Shown: positions 3,387 through 36,746 of the stretch, one piece after another | Layout: every line of letters begins with the position of its first letter | Position numbering within the stretch: the first letter of the stretch is position 1 | From: a virus | Taxonomy: Duplodnaviria; Heunggongvirae; Uroviricota; Caudoviricetes | IMG/VR virus record: IMGVR_UViG_3300039314_000292 | Length of the DNA: 41,845 nucleotides | Strand: one strand, 5' to 3' | Position numbers and translations under genes: made by a program | Notes under the pieces: generated by a model | The model's input: the letters and a program-made list of their open reading frames with translations, nothing else | Told to the model about the DNA's origin: nothing | Database searches by the model: none

Positions 3387-6300
3387 TTAACGTTCTTCCA
3401 GAGACTGAATCCGCTCTTTTATCTTATCCATTTCTCTGCGCTGCCATGCTGCCTCGATATAGAATAAGAGATCAGGTCTGACCCCCCATCTAGATCCTGC
3501 TGGCGTTATTTCAACGCGCTCAATGATGTCTTCCATTACCATCACTGGATTATCATCCTCATCAACAATAATGCTCCCGTCATTATCAGTCAGCGGCATT
3601 TCCCTTTGGCCAGTAATGACGTCATCATATACTGCGGGATAATCGTCATAGCAAAGAAACGCATAGCGGCATGTTGTGCTTTCTTCTTCCATGAGTCCGT
3701 GAGAAATAAGAACATCACGAAGTTGCTGCGCGATTACACCATGATGTATCCTCGCCCCTTCTTCCCCCTTTATAGCGACAGCGTTCAGCCATTTATAAGC
3801 GATATACCTGACGTCACCCCAGGCATCCAGCAATGCTTCGTCAGGAGAGACCGGCTCTGTCTTTAATGTTCCGTCACTGGTAACCACAGGATTGGAGCCA
3901 AGATAAACTGTCGAGAACCTGTTTCCCGGACCACCAAGAGCATTTACATTATCAAGATAAGGTTTAACATCTCCGTTCTCAAAAAGATGTTCGAGTGCGT
4001 TATATACCGCGCGACGTGGAGTACTGCTTCCGGAACCATGCAACGTTATCATTGCACCATCTGCTGAAGACGTTGTTTCACCGCCGCTAACGATTAATCT
4101 CTGAGCGGTAACATCATCAGACGGTACTTTCTTCGCAATAATGGCGTAATTACCCTCAAGTTTGACTTCCGCGCGAACTTGTCCTGATGTACCTGCATGG
4201 ACAGTCAGTGACTGGACGGCAACATCATCTGTGAAATCAACGGGTACAGGAACCGTCCTCACGCCTGACGTCGACATAAAAGTAGGAAGCGTTCTGTTAG
4301 GAGTGGCTCCGTAGACAAAATCCCTTGAAACAAATTCTTCCTGTTTAATTTTCACCCTGAAACAATACAAATCAGCCGGGTGACCATCGTGAACATAAGG
4401 ATATTTTCTGTTGTTATCCCCTATGCTCCATGGGTTTAGAAAGTCTTCCCCACCGAAAATGTAGTACAGCCAGTTGTCTTTGATACAAACTGAACCAACA
4501 CCAACCGCAGAGTTAACTATTCCGCCCTGATAAATCTGATCAGTAACATTAACCCACTCTACATTATCCAGACTCCACTCATTGACGTTAACTCTGGTCA
4601 TAAATGTTCTTGGATAATTTCCTGCATAACGGTTATCAGGTTCTCCTCCTTCCCACTCACCAAATGCGCGCTCACTGCCAAAAATAATCAGCTCATCGCC
4701 AACTTTGGCAAAAGGAAGGTTTGAGTGATGAACATTATTTGGGAAGCGAAGAGAATTCCATGATGTACCTAAATCAGAGCTTCTGTGCAATGAACTACCG
4801 GGTTGAGTACTTAATGTCCCCCTGGTCGTCAGATACAGAATGCCATCATAATATTTTACACATGGCTCAGATGCATTCGCCTCATATTCTGCAGGTATGC
4901 GTCTGCGAACAAAGCTACCAGGAGAACCGAAAGCATCAGAGAAATAGAGTATCCCAAGCTCGCGTGGACCAATATCACCATTATGGTAGCCAACAGCAAA
5001 ACTGTTATCGCTAATCGTCGCAAAACTGTGAATCTCAGTAACAGGAGTGCTTCCGTCAACAAAAGAAGGAATAGTTCCAAGACTGGTTTTTCTCCATGGT
5101 GACGAGTGAAATGATGTACCAAAACTCCAGTATCTACCCTCGTTATTCTGATCCACATCCTGGGTATTTTGCGTCGTAACTGTAAAAGTATTTTTATCAA
5201 TAACAGTAGTCACCGTCATATTCCCGGTAACACCTGTAACACCAGAGTTTGAGAAGTTGACAAAATCACCAGCAAATAATCCGTGATCAGTAATGCGAAT
5301 ATAAGCGACTTGCTGATTTGCTGCTTTCGTTATACCACCATAAACGCGAAGGCTGCGACTCATTGGGCGATCCCACAACTCTGCAACCTGCAGTTTATTT
5401 CCGCTCACGGTCCGCGTCTCAATTACAGCAAAAAGGCGATTTCTGACAACCCCCATACTCATGCAGTGATAGTTAACTGTGGGATAGTTTTCATGTAAAT
5501 CTGTAAGCCATTCCGGCGTTGTCCAGGTCTTCCCGTCATCTCCTGAGCGAACCCATGCAACATGGAGGTTATTTACACCATGGCGGTCTCCAGCCATAAA
5601 AGGCGCATAGATGACATTGTCATATACAAACGTTTTATCCTGCGTCCAGGCGTTGTACCACGGTGTATCTGTAATTTTAAATAACTCTCCCTGGATAAAA
5701 TCTTCAGAAGCATAAAAAAGAGGCTGGCCCGGTATTCTCTCAAATAAAAAACGAGCATTTTTAAATCGACTGACATCCGGAAGAGTTGATACTTTAAAAG
5801 TAAGCCCTAATCCGTCAATTCTATAACCTGGAGATGAGGCTTCAAGGCACGCGCTTATTGCAGTGGAATCGTCATTTATACCATCACCAACAGCTCCAAA
5901 ATCTTTGGGGCTAATAGCATCACGCATTTTATCCTGGAACGTTCGGTACACAGCCCCAGAACCATACTGAATAAACCAACCAAAACCACCAACAACCCCG
6001 GCGATTGCAGCATCGACATAATTACGCATTGAGCGATTATTTACAGCGTCCTGCTCAAATGATGGATCTGCAAGGTTAGAAATTTTGTTTTGCTTTGCAT
6101 CGTAATATTTTGCAAGCAAAGATGGTTTCATCAATGCACGTCTGAACCACCCAAAACATTGCTGGATCAGCATCGTCAGGTAGTCAAAGGCATCTTCATG
6201 CACTTCGGGGAAAAATTTTCCCTGATTGCGAAGGTCTGTCTCCTGCACTACATCAAGCACACGATCTATCGTAATTCGCCATCCAGTAGCAAGCGGAGAC

Positions 6301-6506
6301 GGAAGAACCACAGAACCGCCACTATAAGTGCCCGCCCCAGTTACCGTATAACCGGTATCCAGAACCAATTCTGTTACGTTTCCGTTCAGGTCAGACACCT
6401 GAACAACCAGGTCTGATTTTCTGAAAATTCGAAAAGTATACGGAAACGATGTCGTAACGCCGTTACCGGTGTATTCGTTGTGGTCAACTTCGGTTGAGAC
6501 CGTCAT
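3387..6506 (-). CDS. tailspike / receptor-binding depolymerase with C-terminal intramolecular chaperone domain (1039 aa)
   Basis: N-terminal NEYTGNGVTTSFPYTF segment typical of podovirus spike N-termini; DFGAVGDGINDDSTAI beta-helix (pectate-lyase-3-like) signature; Asp-box motifs SGDDGKTW and SSDLGTSW; C-terminal about 160 aa with SDGTLKT motif resembling self-cleaving chaperone (peptidase S74-like) domains. Confidence 0.9.
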   Translation of the reverse strand: MTVSTEVDHNEYTGNGVTTSFPYTFRIFRKSDLVVQVSDLNGNVTELVLDTGYTVTGAGTYSGGSVVLPSPLATGWRITIDRVLDVVQETDLRNQGKFFPEVHEDAFDYLTMLIQQCFGWFRRALMKPSLLAKYYDAKQNKISNLADPSFEQDAVNNRSMRNYVDAAIAGVVGGFGWFIQYGSGAVYRTFQDKMRDAISPKDFGAVGDGINDDSTAISACLEASSPGYRIDGLGLTFKVSTLPDVSRFKNARFLFERIPGQPLFYASEDFIQGELFKITDTPWYNAWTQDKTFVYDNVIYAPFMAGDRHGVNNLHVAWVRSGDDGKTWTTPEWLTDLHENYPTVNYHCMSMGVVRNRLFAVIETRTVSGNKLQVAELWDRPMSRSLRVYGGITKAANQQVAYIRITDHGLFAGDFVNFSNSGVTGVTGNMTVTTVIDKNTFTVTTQNTQDVDQNNEGRYWSFGTSFHSSPWRKTSLGTIPSFVDGSTPVTEIHSFATISDNSFAVGYHNGDIGPRELGILYFSDAFGSPGSFVRRRIPAEYEANASEPCVKYYDGILYLTTRGTLSTQPGSSLHRSSDLGTSWNSLRFPNNVHHSNLPFAKVGDELIIFGSERAFGEWEGGEPDNRYAGNYPRTFMTRVNVNEWSLDNVEWVNVTDQIYQGGIVNSAVGVGSVCIKDNWLYYIFGGEDFLNPWSIGDNNRKYPYVHDGHPADLYCFRVKIKQEEFVSRDFVYGATPNRTLPTFMSTSGVRTVPVPVDFTDDVAVQSLTVHAGTSGQVRAEVKLEGNYAIIAKKVPSDDVTAQRLIVSGGETTSSADGAMITLHGSGSSTPRRAVYNALEHLFENGDVKPYLDNVNALGGPGNRFSTVYLGSNPVVTSDGTLKTEPVSPDEALLDAWGDVRYIAYKWLNAVAIKGEEGARIHHGVIAQQLRDVLISHGLMEEESTTCRYAFLCYDDYPAVYDDVITGQREMPLTDNDGSIIVDEDDNPVMVMEDIIERVEITPAGSRWGVRPDLLFYIEAAWQRREMDKIKERIQSLEER

Positions 6507-6610
6507 GTTAAATCTCCAGATAGTCGCAGCACCCGTTGCGCCGCATATCTGGTTATTCTATTACCTGGAAAACCACATATGGATAGAAAGGCTGTAAATA
6601 CGAATAGATA

Positions 6611-6625
6611 TTACCTTTCAGGTGA
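6611..6625. promoter_or_regulatory. operator-like site TTACC-N5-GGTGA (near-perfect copy of the repeated palindrome)
   Basis: TTACCTTTCAGGTGA about 40 bp upstream of the LexA box; 4/5 match in second half-site. Confidence 0.45.
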
Positions 6626-6662
6626 TTTGCAAAACGTGCTGGATAGCAAACAAATTATTTGC

Positions 6663-6682
6663 TACTGTATAAATATACAGTT
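6663..6682. promoter_or_regulatory. LexA (SOS) box
   Basis: TACTGTATAAATATACAGTT: CTGT-N8-ACAG with AT-rich spacer, matches E. coli LexA consensus TACTGT(AT)4ACAGTA; 21 bp upstream of ATG 6702. Confidence 0.7.
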
Positions 6683-6701
6683 ATTGCATGGAGAAGATAA
6701 G

Positions 6702-6959
6702 ATGCAGCAGTATCACTATCCACTGGAAGACGGATTTACCGAAAGGATTCACACGCCGGGAGGCGTCAGGTCACTGGTGGAGGGATCGCACTTGATGAAA
6801 TTACTCCGGGATCTCGATAAGGATGGATTTAATGTCGATGGCCCACTTGCCGAACTGACTGCACTGATTAACTACGTCACCAGCTCACAGATGTCTATGC
6901 GGGATCTGCAAACACATCTCGACTATTGTGCCGAACAATTACGAAAACAAACCAGATAA
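6702..6959 (+). CDS. small SOS-controlled protein (85 aa), paralog of the antirepressor C-terminal domain; candidate antirepressor
   Basis: ATG 6702 with GGAGAA RBS, favoured over upstream ATG 6579; product aligns to C-terminus of 7275..7985 (LMKLL/LMNLL, DGFNVDG/DGHDVSG, AELT, RDLQTH/RDIQTH). Confidence 0.55.
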   Translation: MQQYHYPLEDGFTERIHTPGGVRSLVEGSHLMKLLRDLDKDGFNVDGPLAELTALINYVTSSQMSMRDLQTHLDYCAEQLRKQTR

Positions 6960-6988: not shown

Positions 6989-7007
6989 ATTTACCTTTGC
7001 GGTAAAT
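6989..7007. promoter_or_regulatory. operator-like 19-bp perfect palindrome ATTTACC-N5-GGTAAAT
   Basis: ATTTACCTTTGCGGTAAAT; perfect 7-bp inverted half-sites; between small SOS gene and antirepressor gene. Confidence 0.6.
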
Positions 7008-7118: not shown

Positions 7119-7274
7119 ATGCGTTAAGCACAGCTATATCCGAATTATGGTGGGCTGGGCAGGGGTCCGAAAGGACGCCGGTACCACTTAGGCCGGTACG
7201 CCAACCTTGTCCAGTTCACCACCAGTAATTGGCGTTGCGGTGGTGATTAAAATCACTAAGTGGAGATAACCACC

Positions 7275-7985
7275 ATGGCTAATGCTCAAACTGCCATCTT
7301 CAAATTTGAATCTGTTAACCCTATCCGTTCCATCATTATCGATGGCCGACCATGGTTTGTAGCCCAAGACGTTTGTAGTGCGCTGCGTATCCAAAACGTC
7401 ACCCAAGCACTTGAAAAACTGGATGATGATGAAAGGTCTATGTTCAACATAGGGCATGAACATCGTGCAATTTTTGACAGCCGAGTAAAAGAGATCAACA
7501 TTATCTCCGAGTCAGGCCTCTACACACTGATCCTCCGCTGCCGCGACGCAGTGACACCAGGCACTATCCCCTACCGCTTTCGTAAATGGGTTACAGGTGA
7601 GGTTCTTCCTCAGATCCGCCGCACCGGAAGTTACATTAAAAACTCGCTCCCGCAGGAAGAACGCATAAAGATGGTTGCCGACCAGGTAGCCAACGCCACG
7701 GCGTCAGCAGTAATGCAGGCGATGAAGATAGAGAACAAAACCTACAGTGCCCCGCTGAAGCCCGGCTACCGCAGTCTGATTCATTCCCCATCTGGTGTTC
7801 TCGGCCTGACGGAGCACTCACTGCTGATGAATCTGCTGAACCAGTTACAGGAAGACGGGCACGACGTATCGGGCGCGGCGGCGGAGCTGACCACCATGTT
7901 CTGCTACATCGTCGGTGTAAGCAAATGCCTGCGTGATATCCAGACGCACGCGGAGTACATCAACGACAAGGCTGGGTTCTTCTGA
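7275..7985 (+). CDS. Bro-N domain antirepressor-like protein (236 aa)
   Basis: ATG 7275 with GGAG RBS; N-terminal Bro-N signature (FKFESVNPIRSIIIDGRPWFVAQDVCSALRIQN...); C-terminal domain paralogous to 6702..6959. Confidence 0.8.
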   Translation: MANAQTAIFKFESVNPIRSIIIDGRPWFVAQDVCSALRIQNVTQALEKLDDDERSMFNIGHEHRAIFDSRVKEINIISESGLYTLILRCRDAVTPGTIPYRFRKWVTGEVLPQIRRTGSYIKNSLPQEERIKMVADQVANATASAVMQAMKIENKTYSAPLKPGYRSLIHSPSGVLGLTEHSLLMNLLNQLQEDGHDVSGAAAELTTMFCYIVGVSKCLRDIQTHAEYINDKAGFF

Positions 7986-8051
7986 CGGGCGGCGGCACAG
8001 GGATGTGCTTCTGACATAATCATTTGCGGTGTGATGTAGATTCACGTAAGA

Positions 8052-8066
8052 TTACCTTAAAGGTAA
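8052..8066. promoter_or_regulatory. operator-like perfect site TTACC-N5-GGTAA
   Basis: ATTACCTTAAAGGTAAACC immediately upstream of the 8093 operon start region. Confidence 0.55.
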
Positions 8067-8092
8067 ACCATGGGTTTACATGAGGAGGAGAT

Positions 8093-8302
8093 ATGGGATT
8101 TTGGTTCGCTCGTACAAAAACGAGGGATAATGCACCCAGCCCTCAGGCAAAAAATGCAGAAGTTCCGGCGTCAGCGCAGGTTAACAAGCGTGGTGGAGTA
8201 TATATCTCATCACAGCAAATTTCTGAGCTTCCTGAGGTTAAGGAGATGCGTCGTCTCGCTGCTGCAATTGTTAAACAGGATCTTGCCACTGTAAGGAAAT
8301 AG
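8093..8302 (+). CDS. small hydrophilic protein (69 aa), first gene of accessory operon
   Basis: ATG 8093 preceded by GAGGAGGAG; stop overlaps the GTG start of the next gene; chosen over overlapping alternate-frame ORF 8070..8294. Confidence 0.45.
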   Translation: MGFWFARTKTRDNAPSPQAKNAEVPASAQVNKRGGVYISSQQISELPEVKEMRRLAAAIVKQDLATVRK

Positions 8303-9168
8303 TGTTGTTAGCTCTTCTAATTATCCCCATTCTGGTTAGTGGTTATATTATGATAACCGCTAACCAGTATCATTATTTCCGTTTATACCGACATGAAGGC
8401 CAGCTTCTTTATATGAAAGTAGCTGCATTAGGTACATATTGCCTTGTTGCATCAGTAATAATTGCAGCCGCTATAAAATATAAATGGCCTGATTTTCACC
8501 TAGTTCACGATATGGTGGAAACTTTTAATGTAACATCAAAACCAGAAACAGATAGAATTTACATGTGGCTGCTTCTTCTCTCAGCCACATCCATTTGCTT
8601 CTCTTTGTGTTATGTGTCTGTTGTGTGGGTGAAAGATTTTCTTCTTGGTTGTTTTTATAAACGTGATATTTACGAGCAAAAAACAGAGGCAATGAAGGCC
8701 AGAGTACTGCGAAAAACTTACTCGCAAGGTTCTTTAGACTTACTATTGCTTGATGCTATTGAATCGGATCCTAAACGACCAATGTTGATTACTTTATCAT
8801 CAAACAAAGTGTATGTTGGAATAATAAATGGTTCTGGTGAACCAACGGAAAATCAGGGTCCGCATCAGCACATATCTTTTGTTCCTTTAATGTCAGGATA
8901 CAGGAACAAAGAAAACTTATCTGTCACATTCACTAATGCTTATCCAGGAGAAATACAGGTCAAGCGGACTGCAGCAATAAGAGGAATTAGCAGAAAGAAA
9001 GTGCCAGGACTTGAGATCATGGTGTCTATTGACGAAATAAGTTATATATCATGGTTTGATTTTGAAGTATATAAAGCAACAAATAACAAAGTAGAATCCA
9101 GGGGGCACGTTATTCGTGTTACCAAAAATGGAAGAAATATATATCAAAGAAATAGCAAAAAAGAATAG
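8302..9168 (+). CDS. low-GC inner-membrane protein (288 aa): 3 N-terminal TM helices plus about 170-aa soluble domain; candidate superinfection-exclusion/defence protein
   Basis: GTG 8302 with AAGGA RBS; markedly AT-rich versus flanking phage genes; TM segments LLALLIIPILVSGYIMI, VAALGTYCLVASVIIAAAI, IYMWLLLLSATSICFSLCYVSVVWV; terminator follows. Confidence 0.7.
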   Translation: MLLALLIIPILVSGYIMITANQYHYFRLYRHEGQLLYMKVAALGTYCLVASVIIAAAIKYKWPDFHLVHDMVETFNVTSKPETDRIYMWLLLLSATSICFSLCYVSVVWVKDFLLGCFYKRDIYEQKTEAMKARVLRKTYSQGSLDLLLLDAIESDPKRPMLITLSSNKVYVGIINGSGEPTENQGPHQHISFVPLMSGYRNKENLSVTFTNAYPGEIQVKRTAAIRGISRKKVPGLEIMVSIDEISYISWFDFEVYKATNNKVESRGHVIRVTKNGRNIYQRNSKKE

Positions 9169-23887: not shown

Positions 23888-24180
23888 TCCTGTTCACTGG
23901 CCTCTTTGGCCATCTTCAAATACTGTTCAGGGCAATGCGCCATAACGCGCTGAAACAGTTCCAGCGCCAGATTGCGTTGCCCCTCATTAAATGCCATTGC
24001 CATAGCGTCTATCGGTGAGATAGCGGAAAACACACGGCCTTTCTCCAGCACCGACCAGACAACGCGACGCCCCTGTTCACTGCTCATGACAAAGCAAATG
24101 TCATCAATTTCACGCTGTGCCATGTCACGTTGCTTACGGGCGTTTTCTTCTTTCAGTTGATCGTCTTCGTAATCTGTCAT
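23884..24180 (-). CDS. small head-morphogenesis-associated protein (98 aa)
   Basis: Coupled (ATGA) between portal and scaffold genes. Confidence 0.5.
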   Translation of the reverse strand: MTDYEDDQLKEENARKQRDMAQREIDDICFVMSSEQGRRVVWSVLEKGRVFSAISPIDAMAMAFNEGQRNLALELFQRVMAHCPEQYLKMAKEASEQE

Positions 24181-25856
24181 TGTGATTGCCCACCCTGACC
24201 ACTAACTGCATTCGCCATAGCTGACAAAACACTCGGATCCGAAGTTTTAGCTTCGCTTAGCGTCTTGGCACCCTGTGCCGCCGCCATCCCCATCGCCATC
24301 ATTTGTTGCTGCTGTTGTTGCTGTGCCCGTTGCTGGCGAGCCTGCTCAACCTGTTCCTGCGGAACAATGACGGTTGGAGACACTCCGGACATATCAGCGA
24401 ATGCATCGATCGCCTGATCAACGTTGAGTTTGTCGAGAGCTTCTGGTTTCGCTTGCGCAAGTTGACCAATGAAGTTGACCGTAGACGCCAGACTGGACAG
24501 GCCGATAGACTTCTGCGCCTGAGCCATGACGGAAATGTATTCGACCTTCAGGGGCATACCTTCCATCGCGTCAGGCGGTGGCGGCAGCATGTTTTTACGC
24601 ACCATCATCGAGAAAGCGCGATCAATGAGAGGATTAAGACATTCGTCGTTCAGACGCTCCAGAACCGGCCCCAACATCAGAAGTTTTTCTTCTTTCATTT
24701 CGATCACCGCTTCAACAGGCATCGAGCGGGTATTGATGTTCTGCAACATCATGAACAGATCGACAAAGTAGGCGCTGTTAATGATTTGACGGGTGTCCTG
24801 AATGTCTGCCACCAAATCTGCTGTACTGGGGTTAACCAGATAAGCAGGCCTGAAACCATCCTGACCAGTAATCTGATCGATATACGTGATGTCGCCAGGA
24901 AGAAGGGAGGCACGCTGATTCTTGAGGGAAGTCGGAGCAACCATCGGCGGATTGGTGGCTTTATCAATCAACTGCGACTTGCGCTGCTGGAGAAGCTGCA
25001 ATGCCTTAACAGGTCCAAGCGCCAGCATACCCGGGCATGATGATCCATAAACATCTTCGCCGTTAACTTCCCAGCGCGGAGCCATAATTGGAAACTCATC
25101 GAATCCGGACTCACGCAACAACTTGTCGTTATCGCCACCAACCTCGTAATAAACCGATTTGAATGGCTTGTTCTTGCTATCCAGCTTCGATGTATCGCGG
25201 TCAATGTTCGGGTAAACCGAATGCATCACTTCAATCCACTTCTCGTAGGTTCCGCTTTCCCACATGCTTTTTACGGATTCGCTGACGTTATTTAGCCCGA
25301 ACTCCTGAACAAGCTGACGAACAGTCATAGAGAACTTGCGAAAACAGGTGTCCACACTGCCACGAGGTGAGTTAGCCAGGTAGTAACTGCCTATCGGGAA
25401 TGGCATTGTGCGAATGATGTCCTCGTCATCCTCCAGCACTGCCATTGCACCAGTGCTGTATGTGCCGAGGCTTCCGTATAACTGCGGCAGCGACTGATAG
25501 AGATTCGAATTATTGAACATATCGTTCATGCGGTTCTGCACCGCCTCAAGCCACAACTTAACAGGGCCATAATCCATCATTTCAGGATCTGGCGTAGCCA
25601 GGCGAAACCACGGACGCGCGGGGCTTGTGATGCCTGACATCATGCCGCTGGCGAGAGTGCGCGCTGCCATAGTCCCGGTCGAATCAATAATACGTGTATT
25701 GCGTCGATCGTTACGGTTGACCTCAGAAGTCAGAAAGCGGGAACCACGCGGGTTGATGTAATCACTCAACTCGCGCCAGTGCGGCTCGAACGACTGACGC
25801 TCGCTTTCAAGTTGTGCGAACTGTTTGTTCAATCGCTCTTTAGTTGTTTCCGCCAT
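24177..25856 (-). CDS. portal (head-to-tail connector) protein (559 aa)
   Basis: Size and C-terminal Gln/Ala/Met-rich tail (QQQQQQMMAMGMAAAQGA) resembling T7 gp8-type connectors (memory). Confidence 0.85.
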   Translation of the reverse strand: MAETTKERLNKQFAQLESERQSFEPHWRELSDYINPRGSRFLTSEVNRNDRRNTRIIDSTGTMAARTLASGMMSGITSPARPWFRLATPDPEMMDYGPVKLWLEAVQNRMNDMFNNSNLYQSLPQLYGSLGTYSTGAMAVLEDDEDIIRTMPFPIGSYYLANSPRGSVDTCFRKFSMTVRQLVQEFGLNNVSESVKSMWESGTYEKWIEVMHSVYPNIDRDTSKLDSKNKPFKSVYYEVGGDNDKLLRESGFDEFPIMAPRWEVNGEDVYGSSCPGMLALGPVKALQLLQQRKSQLIDKATNPPMVAPTSLKNQRASLLPGDITYIDQITGQDGFRPAYLVNPSTADLVADIQDTRQIINSAYFVDLFMMLQNINTRSMPVEAVIEMKEEKLLMLGPVLERLNDECLNPLIDRAFSMMVRKNMLPPPPDAMEGMPLKVEYISVMAQAQKSIGLSSLASTVNFIGQLAQAKPEALDKLNVDQAIDAFADMSGVSPTVIVPQEQVEQARQQRAQQQQQQQMMAMGMAAAQGAKTLSEAKTSDPSVLSAMANAVSGQGGQSQ

Positions 25857-25870
25857 TTCAATGACTCCGG

Positions 25871-26077
25871 TTACTGACCAAGCAGCGTTTTACCGCTGGT
25901 ATTAGCGGTTGATGTGTCGCCCTGAGAACCGGTAAGCAGCGTAGAACTACGACCAGCAGCAGCGCGACGGCGACGAGTTTCTTCGTCGCGGGCATCAACA
26001 ACGGCGGCATCCTGCTCCTGTGGTGCTGCCTGAACTTCTGGTGTTGCAGGCACTGATGGTGAGCTACCCATGCACAT
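25871..26077 (-). CDS. small protein upstream of portal (68 aa)
   Basis: GGAGTC RBS 8 nt upstream of ATG; Ala/Pro/charged composition. Confidence 0.45.
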   Translation of the reverse strand: MCMGSSPSVPATPEVQAAPQEQDAAVVDARDEETRRRRAAAGRSSTLLTGSQGDTSTANTSGKTLLGQ

Positions 26078-26145: not shown

Positions 26146-26182
26146 TTGACATTTAACGCACTAATTATTACCTTTCAGGTAA
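26146..26182 (+). promoter_or_regulatory. putative promoter (TTGACA -35) overlapped by perfect TTACC-N5-GGTAA operator, facing the tRNA
   Basis: TTGACA at 26146..26151; operator TTACCTTTCAGGTAA at 26168..26182 overlaps the -10 position. Confidence 0.45.
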
Positions 26183-26504: not shown

Positions 26505-26581
26505 GTGGCATTAGCTCAGTTGGACAGAGCAACCGCCTTCTAAGCGGTTGGTCGCAGGTTCGAATACTGCATGCCACGCCA
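26505..26581 (+). tRNA. tRNA-Arg (anticodon UCU), phage-encoded
   Basis: Cloverleaf readable by eye: 7-bp acceptor GTGGCAT/ATGCCAC, D-stem GCTC/GAGC, anticodon stem ACCGC/GCGGT with loop CTTCTAA, T-loop TTCGAAT, 3' GCCA; one T-stem mismatch (G53-A61). Resembles argU (memory). Confidence 0.85.
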
Positions 26582-26624: not shown

Positions 26625-26668
26625 GGCGGTGATGGTTTCCCTTGAAGGACTATCACCGCCCTTTTTAC
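26625..26668 (+). terminator. rho-independent terminator after tRNA
   Basis: GGCGGTGAT...ATCACCGCC stem followed by CTTTTTAC. Confidence 0.6.
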
Positions 26669-26744: not shown

Positions 26745-26769
26745 GCCCGGTTCGTCCGGGCATTTTTTT
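26745..26769 (+). terminator. second rho-independent terminator
   Basis: GCCCGG-TTCGT-CCGGGC followed by ATTTTTTT. Confidence 0.6.
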
Positions 26770-26785
26770 GCCTGATGACCACAAA

Positions 26786-26803
26786 TTACCTTAAAGGTAT
26801 AAT
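26786..26803 (+). promoter_or_regulatory. operator-like site overlapping a TATAAT -10 element of the moron promoter
   Basis: TTACCTTAAAGGTAT (26786..26800) with TATAAT at 26798..26803. Confidence 0.5.
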
Positions 26804-26804
26804 C

Positions 26805-27653
26805 ATGAAAAACTTTAAGGTAATTAGTATGTTCGAATCGTTCAAAGAGCTGTTTTCATCTACTGCCAATACTGCCGTGCATCGAGCTAAAAACCCTGTG
26901 CTTGGTGCTTTTGTTATGTCTTGGTGCGCCTTCAACTGGAAATCACTTCTTTATCTATTTTTTAGCAAATCAAATATAATAGATAAAATTTCATACATCT
27001 CAGATAACAGCACATGGAAAACTGTTATGTTTTATCCATGCTTATCTGTAATTACTATCTGCTGCCTATTACCATGGGTAAACAATATCATTAACGTATG
27101 GCAAGCAAAGCCTCTTGATAATAATGACTCAATCGAAAACCACCGGAAGGCAAGAAAAATACAACGTGAAACACGGCTACAGAGATTGCTGGCTAAAAAA
27201 GACATTACTTACGAAAAAGTAAAAACAGGCGCTGAAAAAAACATTCAAGACATGAAAGAGGAAATAATTCTTTCAAAAGACAGAATGGGACAACTCACAT
27301 CTGAATTGAAAGAGAGGGAGACAGAACTGCGCGCAGCACAAGCTCGTATTTTAGAATTATCTAAGGTTATTGATGAAACAACATCTAAACTAGAAAATCT
27401 AGAAAAAACTCACAAAAATTTAAAAAACGAATATGAGTCCTATAAGAAAAACATTCCTTTGGCAACAAATAATACAATTGCTAATGGGCTTGCAGGTCTA
27501 AAATCATTACAAGACTTTAATGAGTCCGTAAAGAAACTTGGCGTTACTGGAATTAACAATCCAGAAATCAGTACATTATTGAATAATCCTCTAGTAAATA
27601 TAAATGGTGATTTAAATTCCACCTATCAAAGAAAATCAAAAACACAAAAGTAA
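26805..27653 (+). CDS. low-GC membrane protein with two TM helices and long coiled-coil domain (282 aa); candidate abortive-infection/exclusion protein
   Basis: Strongly AT-rich; antisense to the late operon between terminase and portal; TM segments then K/E/L-rich heptad-like region. Start at 26805 or 26829 (promoter geometry favours 26829). Confidence 0.7.
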   Translation: MKNFKVISMFESFKELFSSTANTAVHRAKNPVLGAFVMSWCAFNWKSLLYLFFSKSNIIDKISYISDNSTWKTVMFYPCLSVITICCLLPWVNNIINVWQAKPLDNNDSIENHRKARKIQRETRLQRLLAKKDITYEKVKTGAEKNIQDMKEEIILSKDRMGQLTSELKERETELRAAQARILELSKVIDETTSKLENLEKTHKNLKNEYESYKKNIPLATNNTIANGLAGLKSLQDFNESVKKLGVTGINNPEISTLLNNPLVNINGDLNSTYQRKSKTQK

Positions 27654-27656
27654 AAA

Positions 27657-29126
27657 TCATTCAAATGGGTCATAGTCTGTTATAGCCCTGCCCTGCTGCT
27701 GCCGTGGGTCATTAGTTTTCTTGGCTACCGGGAACGCAAACGTCAGCAGTAGCGCATCGCCTTTACCAGGAGAACGCCCAAGCCGCTCCTTGATATCTTC
27801 CTTCGGTTCGATAACGATTTTACCGTCCACTCGAACTTTGTACTCTGCCGCCGACAGGTCGTCCGCTGTTTCCTGGTCATCAAGCATGCCGCCAAGCCTC
27901 AGCCATGTCTTGCATGAGTTGAACATCTCCCCACGCTTGTTGAGCATCTGCGGGTCAGTAGACGCACCACCAAACGGAACAAGTTGCCATGTACGACCCC
28001 AGCCGTCACCGATTGACTTCAGACCAGTTCCGTAACCGAAGTCGATGAACACTGCGTCAGCCTGGTACTGGTCTTCAAAGTCAGCGATACGCTTCGCCAT
28101 TATCAGATCGTCAGTGGTCTTGTTGCCAGTCCACAGCACCTTACTGTGTAGCCCCTGCCGCAGGTATATCACAGCGTCATCAACGCCGGAGTATGCCGGG
28201 TCAACGCCGATTATCACCGGAGCATGTGCAACCTGCGCAGCGGTTACCACCCGTTTCATTGCCTCGTCAGTAAGACCGGTAGGGATAAACTGCAATTCAG
28301 ATGCATCAGGGAATATGCCACGCACACGGATTTTAACGAAGTCGCTGTCTTCCCCGTAGTCATCAACCCATTTCTGCAACTGCTGTTTGTTGGTACCTTC
28401 CACCGTCCGACTGTCAATCTGCGCAGTTTTCCAGCGGTGTTTATACTTGCGGAAACATTCACGGAAACGTCCGGTATTACGCGTCGGGTTTCCGAACGCC
28501 ACCCAGATAATCTCAGTGTCTTCGTCCGTAAGCGCACCCTCAGCAACTTCCCACACCAGATCCGCAATGTTCGACGCTTCATCGAATACCACGATGATGC
28601 GTTTGCGCTCGTTGTGTAGTCCGGCGAATGCCTCAGTGTTGTGCTCAGACCAGGGGATTGCGTCAGCTCGCCACCGCTTGTCGTGCCCAGGATCATTGCT
28701 GTACATCGCAGTAGCGGTACAGGTAAACCAGTCTTTCGTGATAGCAAGGTTCGACCACTTGATAATTTCCGGCCAGGTCTTCGTTCGTAGCTGGTTGTCG
28801 GTGTTGGCGGTCACCACGACCTTACAATCCTCGCAAGTGGACATGCCCCAGTTGATCAGCATTGAGATGAATGCGGATTTACCAATACCGTGACCAGAAG
28901 CGCGTGCCAGCATAAGCGGCTGATAGCGCGTCTCTGGATTCTGCAGGTGATCACGTATCTCTCGGAACGCATCGGCCTGCCACTGACGTGGACCGGTGGC
29001 ATGTGCCAGTTCAGTACCCTCTTCCCCCCACGGGAACGCATAGAGGGCATAGCCAAGCGGATCGTGAGTGAACCCTGCAATATCCTCGATCAACTGCTCT
29101 TCAGGAGATAACGCTGTATCTGTCAC
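27657..29126 (-). CDS. terminase large subunit (489 aa)
   Basis: GTG start; Walker A ARASGHGIGKS, Walker B IIVVFDEAS, C-terminal nuclease-like region; coupled to small subunit. Confidence 0.9.
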   Translation of the reverse strand: MTDTALSPEEQLIEDIAGFTHDPLGYALYAFPWGEEGTELAHATGPRQWQADAFREIRDHLQNPETRYQPLMLARASGHGIGKSAFISMLINWGMSTCEDCKVVVTANTDNQLRTKTWPEIIKWSNLAITKDWFTCTATAMYSNDPGHDKRWRADAIPWSEHNTEAFAGLHNERKRIIVVFDEASNIADLVWEVAEGALTDEDTEIIWVAFGNPTRNTGRFRECFRKYKHRWKTAQIDSRTVEGTNKQQLQKWVDDYGEDSDFVKIRVRGIFPDASELQFIPTGLTDEAMKRVVTAAQVAHAPVIIGVDPAYSGVDDAVIYLRQGLHSKVLWTGNKTTDDLIMAKRIADFEDQYQADAVFIDFGYGTGLKSIGDGWGRTWQLVPFGGASTDPQMLNKRGEMFNSCKTWLRLGGMLDDQETADDLSAAEYKVRVDGKIVIEPKEDIKERLGRSPGKGDALLLTFAFPVAKKTNDPRQQQGRAITDYDPFE

Positions 29127-29719
29127 TGATTACCATCCTGACGTTCTTTGAGTCGCTTCCTGGCTGCTGCTATGCGATCAGCAATTGTCACATTCACATT
29201 AACATCCAGACGTTCTTTGAACGCGTTGACATCAACATGCTTACCAATCAGCTCAAGGTTCTTCACCTTGTCAGGCCATTTAATTTTTTTGAGGATTGTC
29301 TCTATCGAATCCTCGTTCATGTTCATGATGGTCGATGACAGATCAAAGCCACTAAGCGTAGTGCGCCAGATTTTCGGCCACTCACGGATTGGTTTAAGGC
29401 TCCCATCGTCGTTGAGGATGTCGATCACGTCCATCTGGTCGATCTCCACCAGGCGCATGAGAACGTAATCAGCACTGACGCGCATTCGTTTGTTGCGCTC
29501 CTCCATCAACTCGGCAATCCGTTTTTGAATGCGTTCATCGCGCATCATGACACTAGCTTTAACTGCCGCTGTATTTGGGGAGAATCCTGCGTTAATCGCT
29601 GCCTGAGTCTGGTTTTCAGGCGTTTTGATGTATGACTGGCAATAAGCCTCCTGCATTGCTGTTAGTGGCTTAAATTGCGTTGATTTGCGTTTATAGGTTT
29701 TAGGTTCAGCAGGCATCAT
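29123..29719 (-). CDS. terminase small subunit (about 198 aa)
   Basis: Start moved to tandem ATGs near 29714..29719 (GGTGG RBS) because the track N-terminal extension overlaps an intrinsic terminator; basic helical protein directly upstream of TerL. Confidence 0.7.
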   Translation of the reverse strand: MMPAEPKTYKRKSTQFKPLTAMQEAYCQSYIKTPENQTQAAINAGFSPNTAAVKASVMMRDERIQKRIAELMEERNKRMRVSADYVLMRLVEIDQMDVIDILNDDGSLKPIREWPKIWRTTLSGFDLSSTIMNMNEDSIETILKKIKWPDKVKNLELIGKHVDVNAFKERLDVNVNVTIADRIAAARKRLKERQDGNQ

Positions 29720-29761
29720 AACCACCGTGGTAATAGTTACCGTTGTGGTAATAGTACCATG

Positions 29762-29788
29762 CAAAATAAAGCCGCCATAGTTGGCGGC
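29762..29788 (-). terminator. rho-independent terminator between early and late regions
   Basis: Minus strand GCCGCCA-ACTA-TGGCGGC followed by TTTATTTTG. Confidence 0.6.
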
Positions 29789-29837
29789 AGTATTCAAACC
29801 CCATCAAATTCATCATGCATAATCTACTCGTGACATG

Positions 29838-36161: not shown

Positions 36162-36746
36162 ATGAAAAGTATCCAGGACGTCCGCAGGCAAAATCTCAAC
36201 GACTTGATCGACCGTGAATTCAATGGTGTTCAGACGCGGATGGCAGAAAAACTTGGAACTCAGGCAAATCTGGTAAACCGCTGGGCTCTTGGCAAGAAGG
36301 TTATCGGCGATCAGGTTGCACGAAAAATTGAAGCTGCCGCCAATAAACCCCGTAACTGGCTTGATATTGATCGCTCGCTTTCTCAGGAGGGTTTTCAGCC
36401 TGTCGGCCCGAGTGATATAGGTCAGCTGGCGGCTCACAACCTGGAACGCTGGATGAGCGAAAGCCGCGACCTTTCAACGCAGGGAAAACTACACCGCGCA
36501 TCCGGCGTCGCCCAGGTGACAATCAGCCGCCTGTTAAACAATGAGGTCAGCGTTTCCATTTCCACCCTGGAGAATGTTGCATCCGCATTCGGGCGTCACG
36601 GCTATGAATTACTGATTCACCCGCACGACCCTGCAACCATCAACTATGATCGCTCGCGCTACGCATTGTTACCCGAAACCGAGAAAGCAAAGATCGAAAG
36701 TTACATTGAATTTGTCATCAACCAGAACGAAAAAAACAAACAATAA
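36162..36746 (+). CDS. CI-like repressor with two HTH (XRE-type) domains, no S24 autopeptidase domain (194 aa)
   Basis: HTH QTRMAEKLGTQANLVNRWALGKK and a second HTH-like segment; flanked by operator clusters; own terminator. Confidence 0.65.
   Translation: MKSIQDVRRQNLNDLIDREFNGVQTRMAEKLGTQANLVNRWALGKKVIGDQVARKIEAAANKPRNWLDIDRSLSQEGFQPVGPSDIGQLAAHNLERWMSESRDLSTQGKLHRASGVAQVTISRLLNNEVSVSISTLENVASAFGRHGYELLIHPHDPATINYDRSRYALLPETEKAKIESYIEFVINQNEKNKQ

Follow-up and report, generated by a model that had tools for sequence, protein, structure and literature searches.

T4 Imm, P22 SieA and HK97 gp15 are small inner-membrane proteins of superinfection exclusion, encoded by phages, that need no partner gene; Imm is the product of an early lytic-phase gene, and SieA is expressed from the prophage. 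The gene considered here, designated X, occupies positions 26829-27653 (+ strand) of a 41,845-nucleotide stretch of viral DNA (IMG/VR record IMGVR_UViG_3300039314_000292; hereafter ‘the window’), which is a complete Escherichia coli prophage of the epsilon15/phiV10-like (Uetakevirus) type with lambdoid-type early genes. X is cargo, set antisense between the large terminase gene and the portal, and its promoter carries a site that is recognised here, from its sequence, as an operator of the epsilon15-type phage repressor. The reading preferred below, tentatively and with a probability of roughly 0.4, is that X is a repressor-gated, membrane-located exclusion or phage-competition factor.

Closest described systems

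Among the literature closest to X are accounts of P22 SieA (PMC10883804), of the AbiTii domain (PMC3710099, PMC13064643), and of DS-13B and DS-43, E. coli defence proteins with N-terminal transmembrane (TM) segments and helical bodies that were validated in the DefensePredictor work (PMC13092281). X is not itself among the DefensePredictor validated systems, and no paper in the literature searched mentions it; a paper on neaT, taken up as a lead, concerns a different moron.

X differs from Imm, SieA and gp15 in being larger and mostly predicted cytoplasmic coiled coil, and no sequence similarity to them was detected; moreover, SieA is made from the prophage, whereas X carries a repressor operator. 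With DS-13B, DS-43 and the SLATT-type effectors with two TM helices (2TM) it shares one or two N-terminal TM helices, a helical cytoplasmic body and carriage on mobile elements, but DS-13B and DS-43 are not homologous to it (hhalign probability 0.1%). AbiTii loci (PF18864) are brought close by a distant subfamily of X relatives that adjoins AbiTii genes; the window has no AbiTii gene, and the neighbours of X in it are a tRNA and TerL. The p16.7 protein of phi29, which tethers replication to the membrane by a TM anchor and a coiled coil, and ATP synthase subunit b resemble X in architecture only, a TM helix running into a long helix; neither is homologous. The remaining comparison is with the repressor (Rep) regulon of epsilon15 and SPC32H: the palindrome in the X promoter has the form of the annotated epsilon15 repressor sites.

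An operator across the promoter of X

The gene itself is real. An uninterrupted + strand open reading frame (ORF) spans 26775-27653, between TerL (27657-29126, - strand) and a 68-aa gene (25871-26077, - strand) that precedes the portal gene, which agrees with an earlier sequence-only reading of the window; X converges on TerL, the two stop codons lying 3 nt apart. That reading also called it the most AT-rich coding region, and rightly: its G+C fraction of 0.339, against 0.495 for the window (about 0.34 against 0.50), is below that of every other ORF tested, and the lowest 600-bp bin of the window is 27001-27600. The start it gave, 26775, has to be moved. Nearly all homologues begin at a Met that matches residue 19 (M19) of the long ORF; the ATG at 26775 opens a -35 hexamer, and another, at 26805, lies directly past the -10. 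Because the homologues begin at M19, and because the layout of promoter, 5′ untranslated region (UTR) and Shine-Dalgarno sequence is conserved in 36 distinct upstream regions, the true start is taken to be the ATG at 26829; the coding sequence is then 26829-27653, 274 aa and a stop, in agreement with the extent of the family profile (PHROG 4780).

The promoter is of the sigma-70 type, ATGACC-17-TATAAT (26775-26803, + strand; 10 of 12 positions match in a promoter scan), with its -35 hexamer at 26775-26780 and its -10 at 26798-26803. When 36 distinct upstream regions from 79 loci were compared, 35 (the exception is locus L003) kept both hexamers in the same register, [A/G]TGAC[C/T/G] at the same offset and TAnnnT after the same 17-nt spacing; an A-rich leader, ~20-25 nt long, comes next. 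The register is kept even where all sequence further upstream diverges.

Within this promoter lies a palindrome (unstranded), ATTACCTTAAAGGTATA (26785-26801), which lies over the spacer and runs into the start of the -10; its core, TACC-N5-GGTA (TACCTTAAAGGTA, 26787-26799), is formed by the spacer together with the two leading bases of the -10. The sequence-only reading had remarked on an operator-like site overlapping a TATAAT -10, and the site can now be given a name. It is of the ATTACC-N5-GGTAAT type; all seven sites entered as ‘protein_bind: repressor, lysogeny’ in the epsilon15 GenBank record read (A)TTACC-N5-GGTAAT; and the core occurs 10 times in the window where 0.22 would be expected, no shuffled sequence containing more than two. 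The operator-like site at X is, on this likeness, identifiable as an operator of the phage repressor Rep, binding being predicted from the motif alone. Of the 36 distinct regions in front of X homologues, 29 hold the core exactly and 35 with at most one mismatch, and it is kept in a subfamily from Rahnella, Advenella and Kluyvera whose proteins are only ~25-30% identical to X: in these alignments, the putative operator is better conserved than the protein it would control. In Klebsiella phage KO-TP1, the repressor of which is annotated as LexA-family, the site has degenerated to 3 mismatches.

A 16-nt inverted repeat (unstranded; left arm 26781-26796, right arm 26813-26828; 94% complementary) overlies the same region, its right arm holding a second, perfect GGTAAT half-site and the Shine-Dalgarno AAGG (26817-26820). 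It was considered as a conserved RNA hairpin or operator and rejected as lineage-specific, being present only in the lineages of the window, L002 and L017; the fold of the X 5′ UTR is not unusual (z -1.2).

Two marks of a member of a Rep regulon were found, an operator at the promoter and the cognate repressor in the same element. Rep (36162-36746, + strand), the predicted regulator of the X promoter, is a homologue of the SPC32H repressor (PDB 5d50, E 4e-42) and is 42% identical to epsilon15 gp38. Operators of its type flank its own gene (36093, 36805 and 36867) and lie upstream of TerS (29738), upstream of a resolvase-like gene (33744 and 33806) and between the 68-aa gene and the tRNA (26169); for all four of these regions epsilon15 has counterparts. 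Another, at 6992, is ~0.5 kb upstream of the tailspike gene, and epsilon15 has one just upstream of its own tailspike gene. The regulons of epsilon15 and of the window are then alike in sites upstream of TerS, of the 68-aa gene and of the resolvase-like gene, in the tailspike region and in the immunity region; epsilon15 lacks an equivalent of the operator before X (26787) and of the one at 8053. X stands apart from the rest of the regulon in its imperfect right half-site, which doubles as the -10, and from other cargo of the same slot in having an operator at all: none of their own was found for phiV10 p03, epsilon15 p50 or TL-2011b gp23. A paper on ZX5 gives no operator sequence.

An operator laid across spacer and -10 is expected to repress, and for this reason Rep probably keeps X off or low in the stable lysogen, with X turned on when Rep is absent or inactivated, that is, on infection of a non-immune cell or on induction. 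The prophage appears to use a switch of the Rep/Ant type, since it encodes two antirepressor-like genes (6579-6959 and 7260-7985, + strand; PHROGs 450, 130 and 245) as well as the SPC32H-type repressor.

Two further observations concern the reach of this regulon. A second AT-rich unit of + strand cargo (8093-9168) consists of ORFs 8093-8302 (PHROG 5739) and 8302-9168 (PHROG 3630; G+C 0.36, no Pfam match), in a stretch of ~3.5 kb, between the tailspike gene and the gp17-like gene, that is inserted relative to epsilon15; the Rep-type operator ATTACCTTAAAGGTAAA (8051-8067) precedes it in the layout seen at X, namely -35, 6 nt, operator, -10. Upstream of the tRNA-Arg there is a promoter-like TTGACA-17-TACCTT (26146-26181, + strand; ~1945-1982 in L078), the -10 of which is the left half of a Rep operator; epsilon15 conserves this site, with its operator annotated on the gp3 strand. 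Such an arrangement hints at a transcript under Rep control that would run, in antisense to the late genes, through the tRNA toward the cargo slot.

A conserved, putative membrane module with exchangeable tails

AlphaFold renders X as all-helical (mean predicted local distance difference test score, pLDDT, of 71 for the full length and 81 for the N-domain with a diverse alignment), with helices at residues 2-20, 23-35, 37-45 and 50-60 and another from residue 63; the last is continuous to residue 132 in the N-domain model, and in the full-length model appears as helices 63-93, 101-130 and 134-208 with short breaks between, followed by a low-confidence tail. Taken with the alignments and hydrophobicity, these models divide the protein into a family-conserved N-terminal helix (aa 1-20; 26829-26888, + strand, as for the segments that follow); a first hydrophobic helix that bears the motif SWxxFNW, is marginal as a TM segment and is kinked at residue 36 (aa 23-45; 26895-26963); a second hydrophobic helix that is a clear TM segment (aa 63-91; 27015-27101); a conserved, strongly basic juxtamembrane coiled-coil segment with many invariant residues and a net charge of +5 over aa 92-125 (aa 92-160; 27102-27308); and a hypervariable distal coiled coil with a low-confidence tail, where pLDDT falls below 60 after about residue 210 (aa 161-274; 27309-27650).

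Two TM helices and a K/E/L-rich coiled coil had been read from the translation alone. The coiled coil is seconded by the models, which place a long K/E/L-rich helix at residues 134-208 with pLDDT above 90. Of the TM helices, one is well marked: the Kyte-Doolittle value is 2.0 (clear) for residues 66-84, and only 1.2 (marginal) for residues 27-45. Across 135 diverse relatives, the median maximum hydrophobicity is 1.55 for helix 1 and 2.08 for helix 2, and the mean net charge is +1.0 in the N-terminal helix, -0.9 in the inter-helix loop and +2.1 after helix 2. This family-wide hydrophobicity, with its positive-inside charge pattern, favours a hairpin that has both ends and the coiled coil in the cytoplasm; in predicted topology, X would be an inner-membrane helical hairpin, N-in/C-in, with a cytoplasmic coiled coil.

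The boundary near residue 160 is also a boundary of variation. The 61 loci with X in the TerL-portal slot encode 37 distinct proteins, falling at 50% identity into 13 C-terminal types and only 3 N-terminal types. In 175 pairs of phages that share ≥96% identity in TerL and ≥98% in portal, X has a median identity of 92% up to residue 160 and of 24% beyond it, and in 62% of the pairs the C-termini are less than 40% identical. Unrelated tails in near-identical phages imply exchange of modules from a diverse pool. Such swapping is, as a sequence pattern, what would be expected of a specificity determinant in a conflict system.

One relative (P0080; L101 5001-5984), of 327 aa, has an extra C-terminal extension of ~90 residues past the coiled coil; its gene adjoins a DUF6338 gene in a lambdoid replication/nin region.

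An accessory cassette in a cargo hotspot

Of 5426 complete E. coli genomes, 515 contain the TerL type of the window; the X family was detected at the DNA level in 62 of these 515, and the exact allele with its flanks in 18. Elsewhere the slot is differently filled: phiV10 and epsilon15 carry a PF13876 (gp49/gene 66) gene there, and TL-2011b an unrelated 115-aa repeat protein. The description of the site as a hotspot with accessory cargo is upheld by these comparisons, and X shows two of the traits looked for in a moron: it varies between relatives, and it has its own promoter (the 10/12 match described above) insulated by two terminator-like hairpins (26625-26660 and 26745-26761, + strand) between the tRNA and that promoter. 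The second hairpin accompanies the cassette into some other contexts; downstream of X no clear terminator was seen. Against a third such trait, transcription from the repressed prophage without regard to the master repressor, speaks the Rep-type operator over the -10.

The tRNA was supposed to have entered together with X. It is a tRNA-Arg(UCU) (26505-26581, + strand), the sole match in an Rfam scan, and the annotations of O157 typing phages 9 and 10, phiv142-3 and SPC32H, all lacking X, list it too; for that reason co-insertion is rejected, and the tRNA is taken as a resident of the slot.

The cassette has also travelled. Copies stand in lambdoid replication/nin regions, opposite the early operon (KO-TP1, L037, L040-42, L048, L066, L069, L075 and L101), and the lambdoid copies are often followed by a 51-147-aa remnant of the C-terminus of a Uetakevirus TerL (L003 5797-5949; L037 6807-7217; L040-L042; L048 6745-7158). 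The remnant shows that these copies were taken out of the TerL-portal slot with flanking DNA. X is found on a P4-type integrase island in Kluyvera (L083), and in a BPP-1-like podovirus (L073), where it stands between protease gene and capsid gene and shares the strand of the late genes, but follows a terminator and keeps a promoter of its own. The L073 position suggested a scaffolding protein; this was rejected, on account of the separate terminator and promoter there and of the absence of X from most relatives. Taken together, these genome comparisons indicate that X is an accessory, horizontally mobile single-gene cassette in a true cargo hotspot.

In Klebsiella prophages L103-L107 the 3′ end of the X homologue overlaps the convergent 3′ end of TerL by 19 nt. 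Prophage Gally of strain LF82, considered as a phage of the same type, was set aside as P22-like.

A large family without curated annotation

X is a full-length member of PHROG 4780 (E 3.4e-121; long-ORF residues 19-292 against profile positions 1-269 of 275), a group of unknown function which, with the related PHROGs 13369 and 35327, corresponds to the family of 142 Enterobacteriaceae clusters found here. The statement that no family could be recognised therefore holds for curated families and fails for this one, which has no function attached and so supplies a name only; all strong PHROG matches of X are of unknown function. A profile of the first 163 residues reaches further, to 2416 clusters (50% identity) at E ≤1e-3 and 350 at E ≤1e-10, mostly of proteins of 230-350 aa with the same layout; W32 and W37 of the SWxxFNW motif are invariant, and R19, F28, N36, P70 and P82 nearly so. 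By this profile the N-domain is the mark of a large family without curated annotation. Two other searches were less productive: the diverse profile, run in a word-indexed protein search, brought up nothing beyond close relatives, and a genome-collection scan with a distant subfamily gave only 4 loci.

Searches for a known function gave little. With X and 31 diverse relatives as queries, Pfam and NCBIfam yielded only coiled-coil noise (SMC, tape-measure and similar) and nothing on the N-domain, and the Pfam families of SLATT and DUF4231 2TM proteins were not matched. In PADLOC-DB v2, the coiled-coil part of X had only weak matches (E 1e-4 or weaker), to LmuB, JetC, DruC and PD-Lambda-1, and the 31 family members a best E of 3.9e-7, all to SMC-type proteins. 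For exclusion proteins of the SieB (PF14163) or SieA type there was no Pfam match up to E 1, nor was any exclusion-annotated PHROG matched. A PDB sequence-profile search returned nothing significant (ATP synthase subunit b appeared at E 1.4), and fold searches no informative match. An i-spanin of the Rz-like kind was also considered and rejected, given the place of X between TerL and portal, its own promoter, the lack of any spanin PHROG or Pfam match and the predicted cytoplasmic coiled coil.

The distant relatives are homologous over the N-terminal ~90-aa membrane module (hhalign probability 95%) and include a Vibrio inovirus and plasmids of Leptospira and Klebsiella. One distant subfamily lies 83-88 bp downstream of AbiTii genes (PF18864) on serine-recombinase islands, of which L085 and L086 also carry a Shedu-type SduA_C gene; elsewhere the same subfamily comes directly after a tyrosine integrase, or after a toxin-antitoxin pair, without AbiTii, for which reason AbiTii is regarded as a neighbour and not an obligate partner. 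The position of such relatives beside Abi, toxin-antitoxin and Shedu-type genes points to a role in conflict.

The islands (L084-L088 and L093-L094, in Erwinia, Enterobacter, Klebsiella and others) are a small integrative element at differing chromosomal sites, with the gene order large serine recombinase, AbiTii-domain gene, X-family gene, resolvase, variable cargo (an SduA_C/Shedu-type nuclease in some) and four small conserved genes. On Klebsiella IncF plasmids (L109 and L110), a DUF1778-GNAT toxin-antitoxin pair and a terminator hairpin come directly before the X-family gene, which is truncated by IS1 in many conjugative plasmids.

What the cassette may do

The preferred reading, a repressor-gated exclusion or competition factor, would run as follows. 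The X cassette of epsilon15/phiV10-like prophages is wired into the phage immunity circuit: Rep would silence it in the stable lysogen, and loss of Rep at infection or induction would fire it. The product would insert in the inner membrane as a helical hairpin, with a basic coiled-coil stalk extending from the second TM helix, and would act there while its own phage grows or establishes itself, perhaps by superinfection exclusion in the manner of T4 Imm. The conserved N-terminal membrane module would be the working part, and the choice of competitor or partner would be made by the exchangeable C-terminal module. Since expression is predicted in the lytic phase, a function harmless to the resident phage, such as an entry block or competition, is favoured over suicide.

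Several points weigh against this. No similarity of sequence or fold to any exclusion, Abi or defence protein was found. The right half of the operator, GGTATA, departs from GGTAAT at two positions, and repression may for that reason be partial; several of the lambdoid-phage copies retain the operator, yet no Rep gene or further operators occur within 6 kb on each side. The topology is not secure, given the marginal hydrophobicity of helix 1, and as predicted it would leave the variable part cytoplasmic; most of the known injection blockers work in the membrane or the periplasm. The change of tails probably also owes something to weak constraint on coiled coils.

A second perspective, that of the sequence-only reading, takes X for a defence or Abi moron made by the prophage, constitutively or by leakage, with the variable coiled coil sensing a superinfecting phage and oligomerisation in the membrane depolarising the cell or blocking the invader. 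Much that is described above suits it: a strong promoter of its own, an AT-rich mobile single-gene cassette, a conserved membrane module joined to a hypervariable distal one in a pattern of diversification like that of conflict genes, and relatives that adjoin AbiTii, Shedu-type (SduA_C) and toxin-antitoxin genes; copies in phages where no Rep was detected in the stretch examined would be unrepressed, and DS-13B and DS-43 are validated instances of TM-plus-helical defence proteins (PMC13092281). X has no homology to these two, however, and its matches in PADLOC, Pfam and NCBIfam are weak and confined to the coiled-coil part, with none on the membrane module. The site over the -10 is the prophage's own Rep operator, which undercuts the classical lysogen-expressed scheme: it predicts that X is silent in the lysogen and expressed while the phage itself grows lytically, when an Abi toxin would be self-harmful. 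Defence or exclusion in the broader sense may still be proposed for X, but its lysogen-expressed form is improbable. About equally improbable is an early lytic helper or host-takeover protein, a membrane-anchored coiled-coil scaffold that might tether replication or packaging (as phi29 p16.7 does for replication), disturb host division or envelope, or tune the timing of lysis. The Rep-controlled, early-type promoter would serve such a protein, the strictly conserved juxtamembrane stalk suggests one fixed partner, and TM plus coiled coil recalls membrane scaffolds, ATP synthase subunit b being the only weak PDB match of that architecture. Against it, X lies outside the replication and lysis modules and was detected in only 62 of the 515 genomes with its TerL type, sister phages manage with unrelated cargo, and tail swapping together with transfer to unrelated phages, islands, plasmids and an inovirus fits a conflict gene better; accessory status, mobility and tail exchange together disfavour a housekeeping role.

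Early, repressor-controlled expression (itself a prediction), accessory status and rapid diversification would also suit an anti-defence factor, which neutralises some membrane-associated defence of the host or of a resident prophage and whose variable tail tracks its targets. The likelihood of this is lower again: relatives that sit on integrative islands and plasmids beside Abi, toxin-antitoxin and Shedu-type genes look more like defence genes, and X is not known to resemble any anti-defence protein and is atypical of them in size and membrane anchoring. That X is a decaying or selfish ORF, without function and merely persisting in a permissive intergenic slot, is very improbable indeed. It has no known domain and truncated copies exist (the 163-aa P0004; a plasmid copy truncated by IS1), but its N-domain is common to 2416 clusters and has invariant residues, the ORF is intact across the 37 alleles of the slot, and promoter, operator and Shine-Dalgarno sequence are all conserved.

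Under control by Rep, X would exemplify cargo recruited into a phage immunity regulon, to which the second cargo unit, with the same operator arrangement, may be added; this would change how ‘morons’ are read in this group of phages. The operator makes a testable prediction of when X acts, and the at least 13 natural tail variants in otherwise near-identical phages are a ready-made experiment on specificity. Accessory genes of phage hotspots have been the source of many new anti-phage mechanisms, and this family is a large one without Pfam, PADLOC or structural annotation. A wider generalisation is more doubtful than the reading it extends: that X founds a new and widespread family of membrane-anchored modules for phage conflict, each a single protein, with ~2400 clusters (50% identity) spread over phages, plasmids and islands, in which a conserved hairpin of ~90 residues with the SWxxFNW motif would be the effector and an exchangeable coiled-coil tail would confer specificity, put to use in epsilon15-like phages as lytic-phase exclusion gated by the master repressor.

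Neighbouring genes and codon use

Beyond the 68-aa gene lies the portal gene (24177-25856, - strand), of the T7 type (PF12236, E 6.5e-187), and beyond TerL is TerS, called as an ORF at 29123-29797 (- strand). The long TerS ORF, from a TTG start at 29797, contains the Rep operator at 29736-29752; by comparison with epsilon15, in which the operator stands ahead of TerS, translation probably begins at the Met of MMPAEPK near 29719.

The AGA codon, which is read by tRNA-Arg(UCU), accounts for 4 of the 11 Arg codons in X, for 36-40% of Arg codons in X and ORF 8302-9168, for 29% in the tailspike gene (3387-6506), and for none in TerL, the portal gene, the major capsid gene or Rep.

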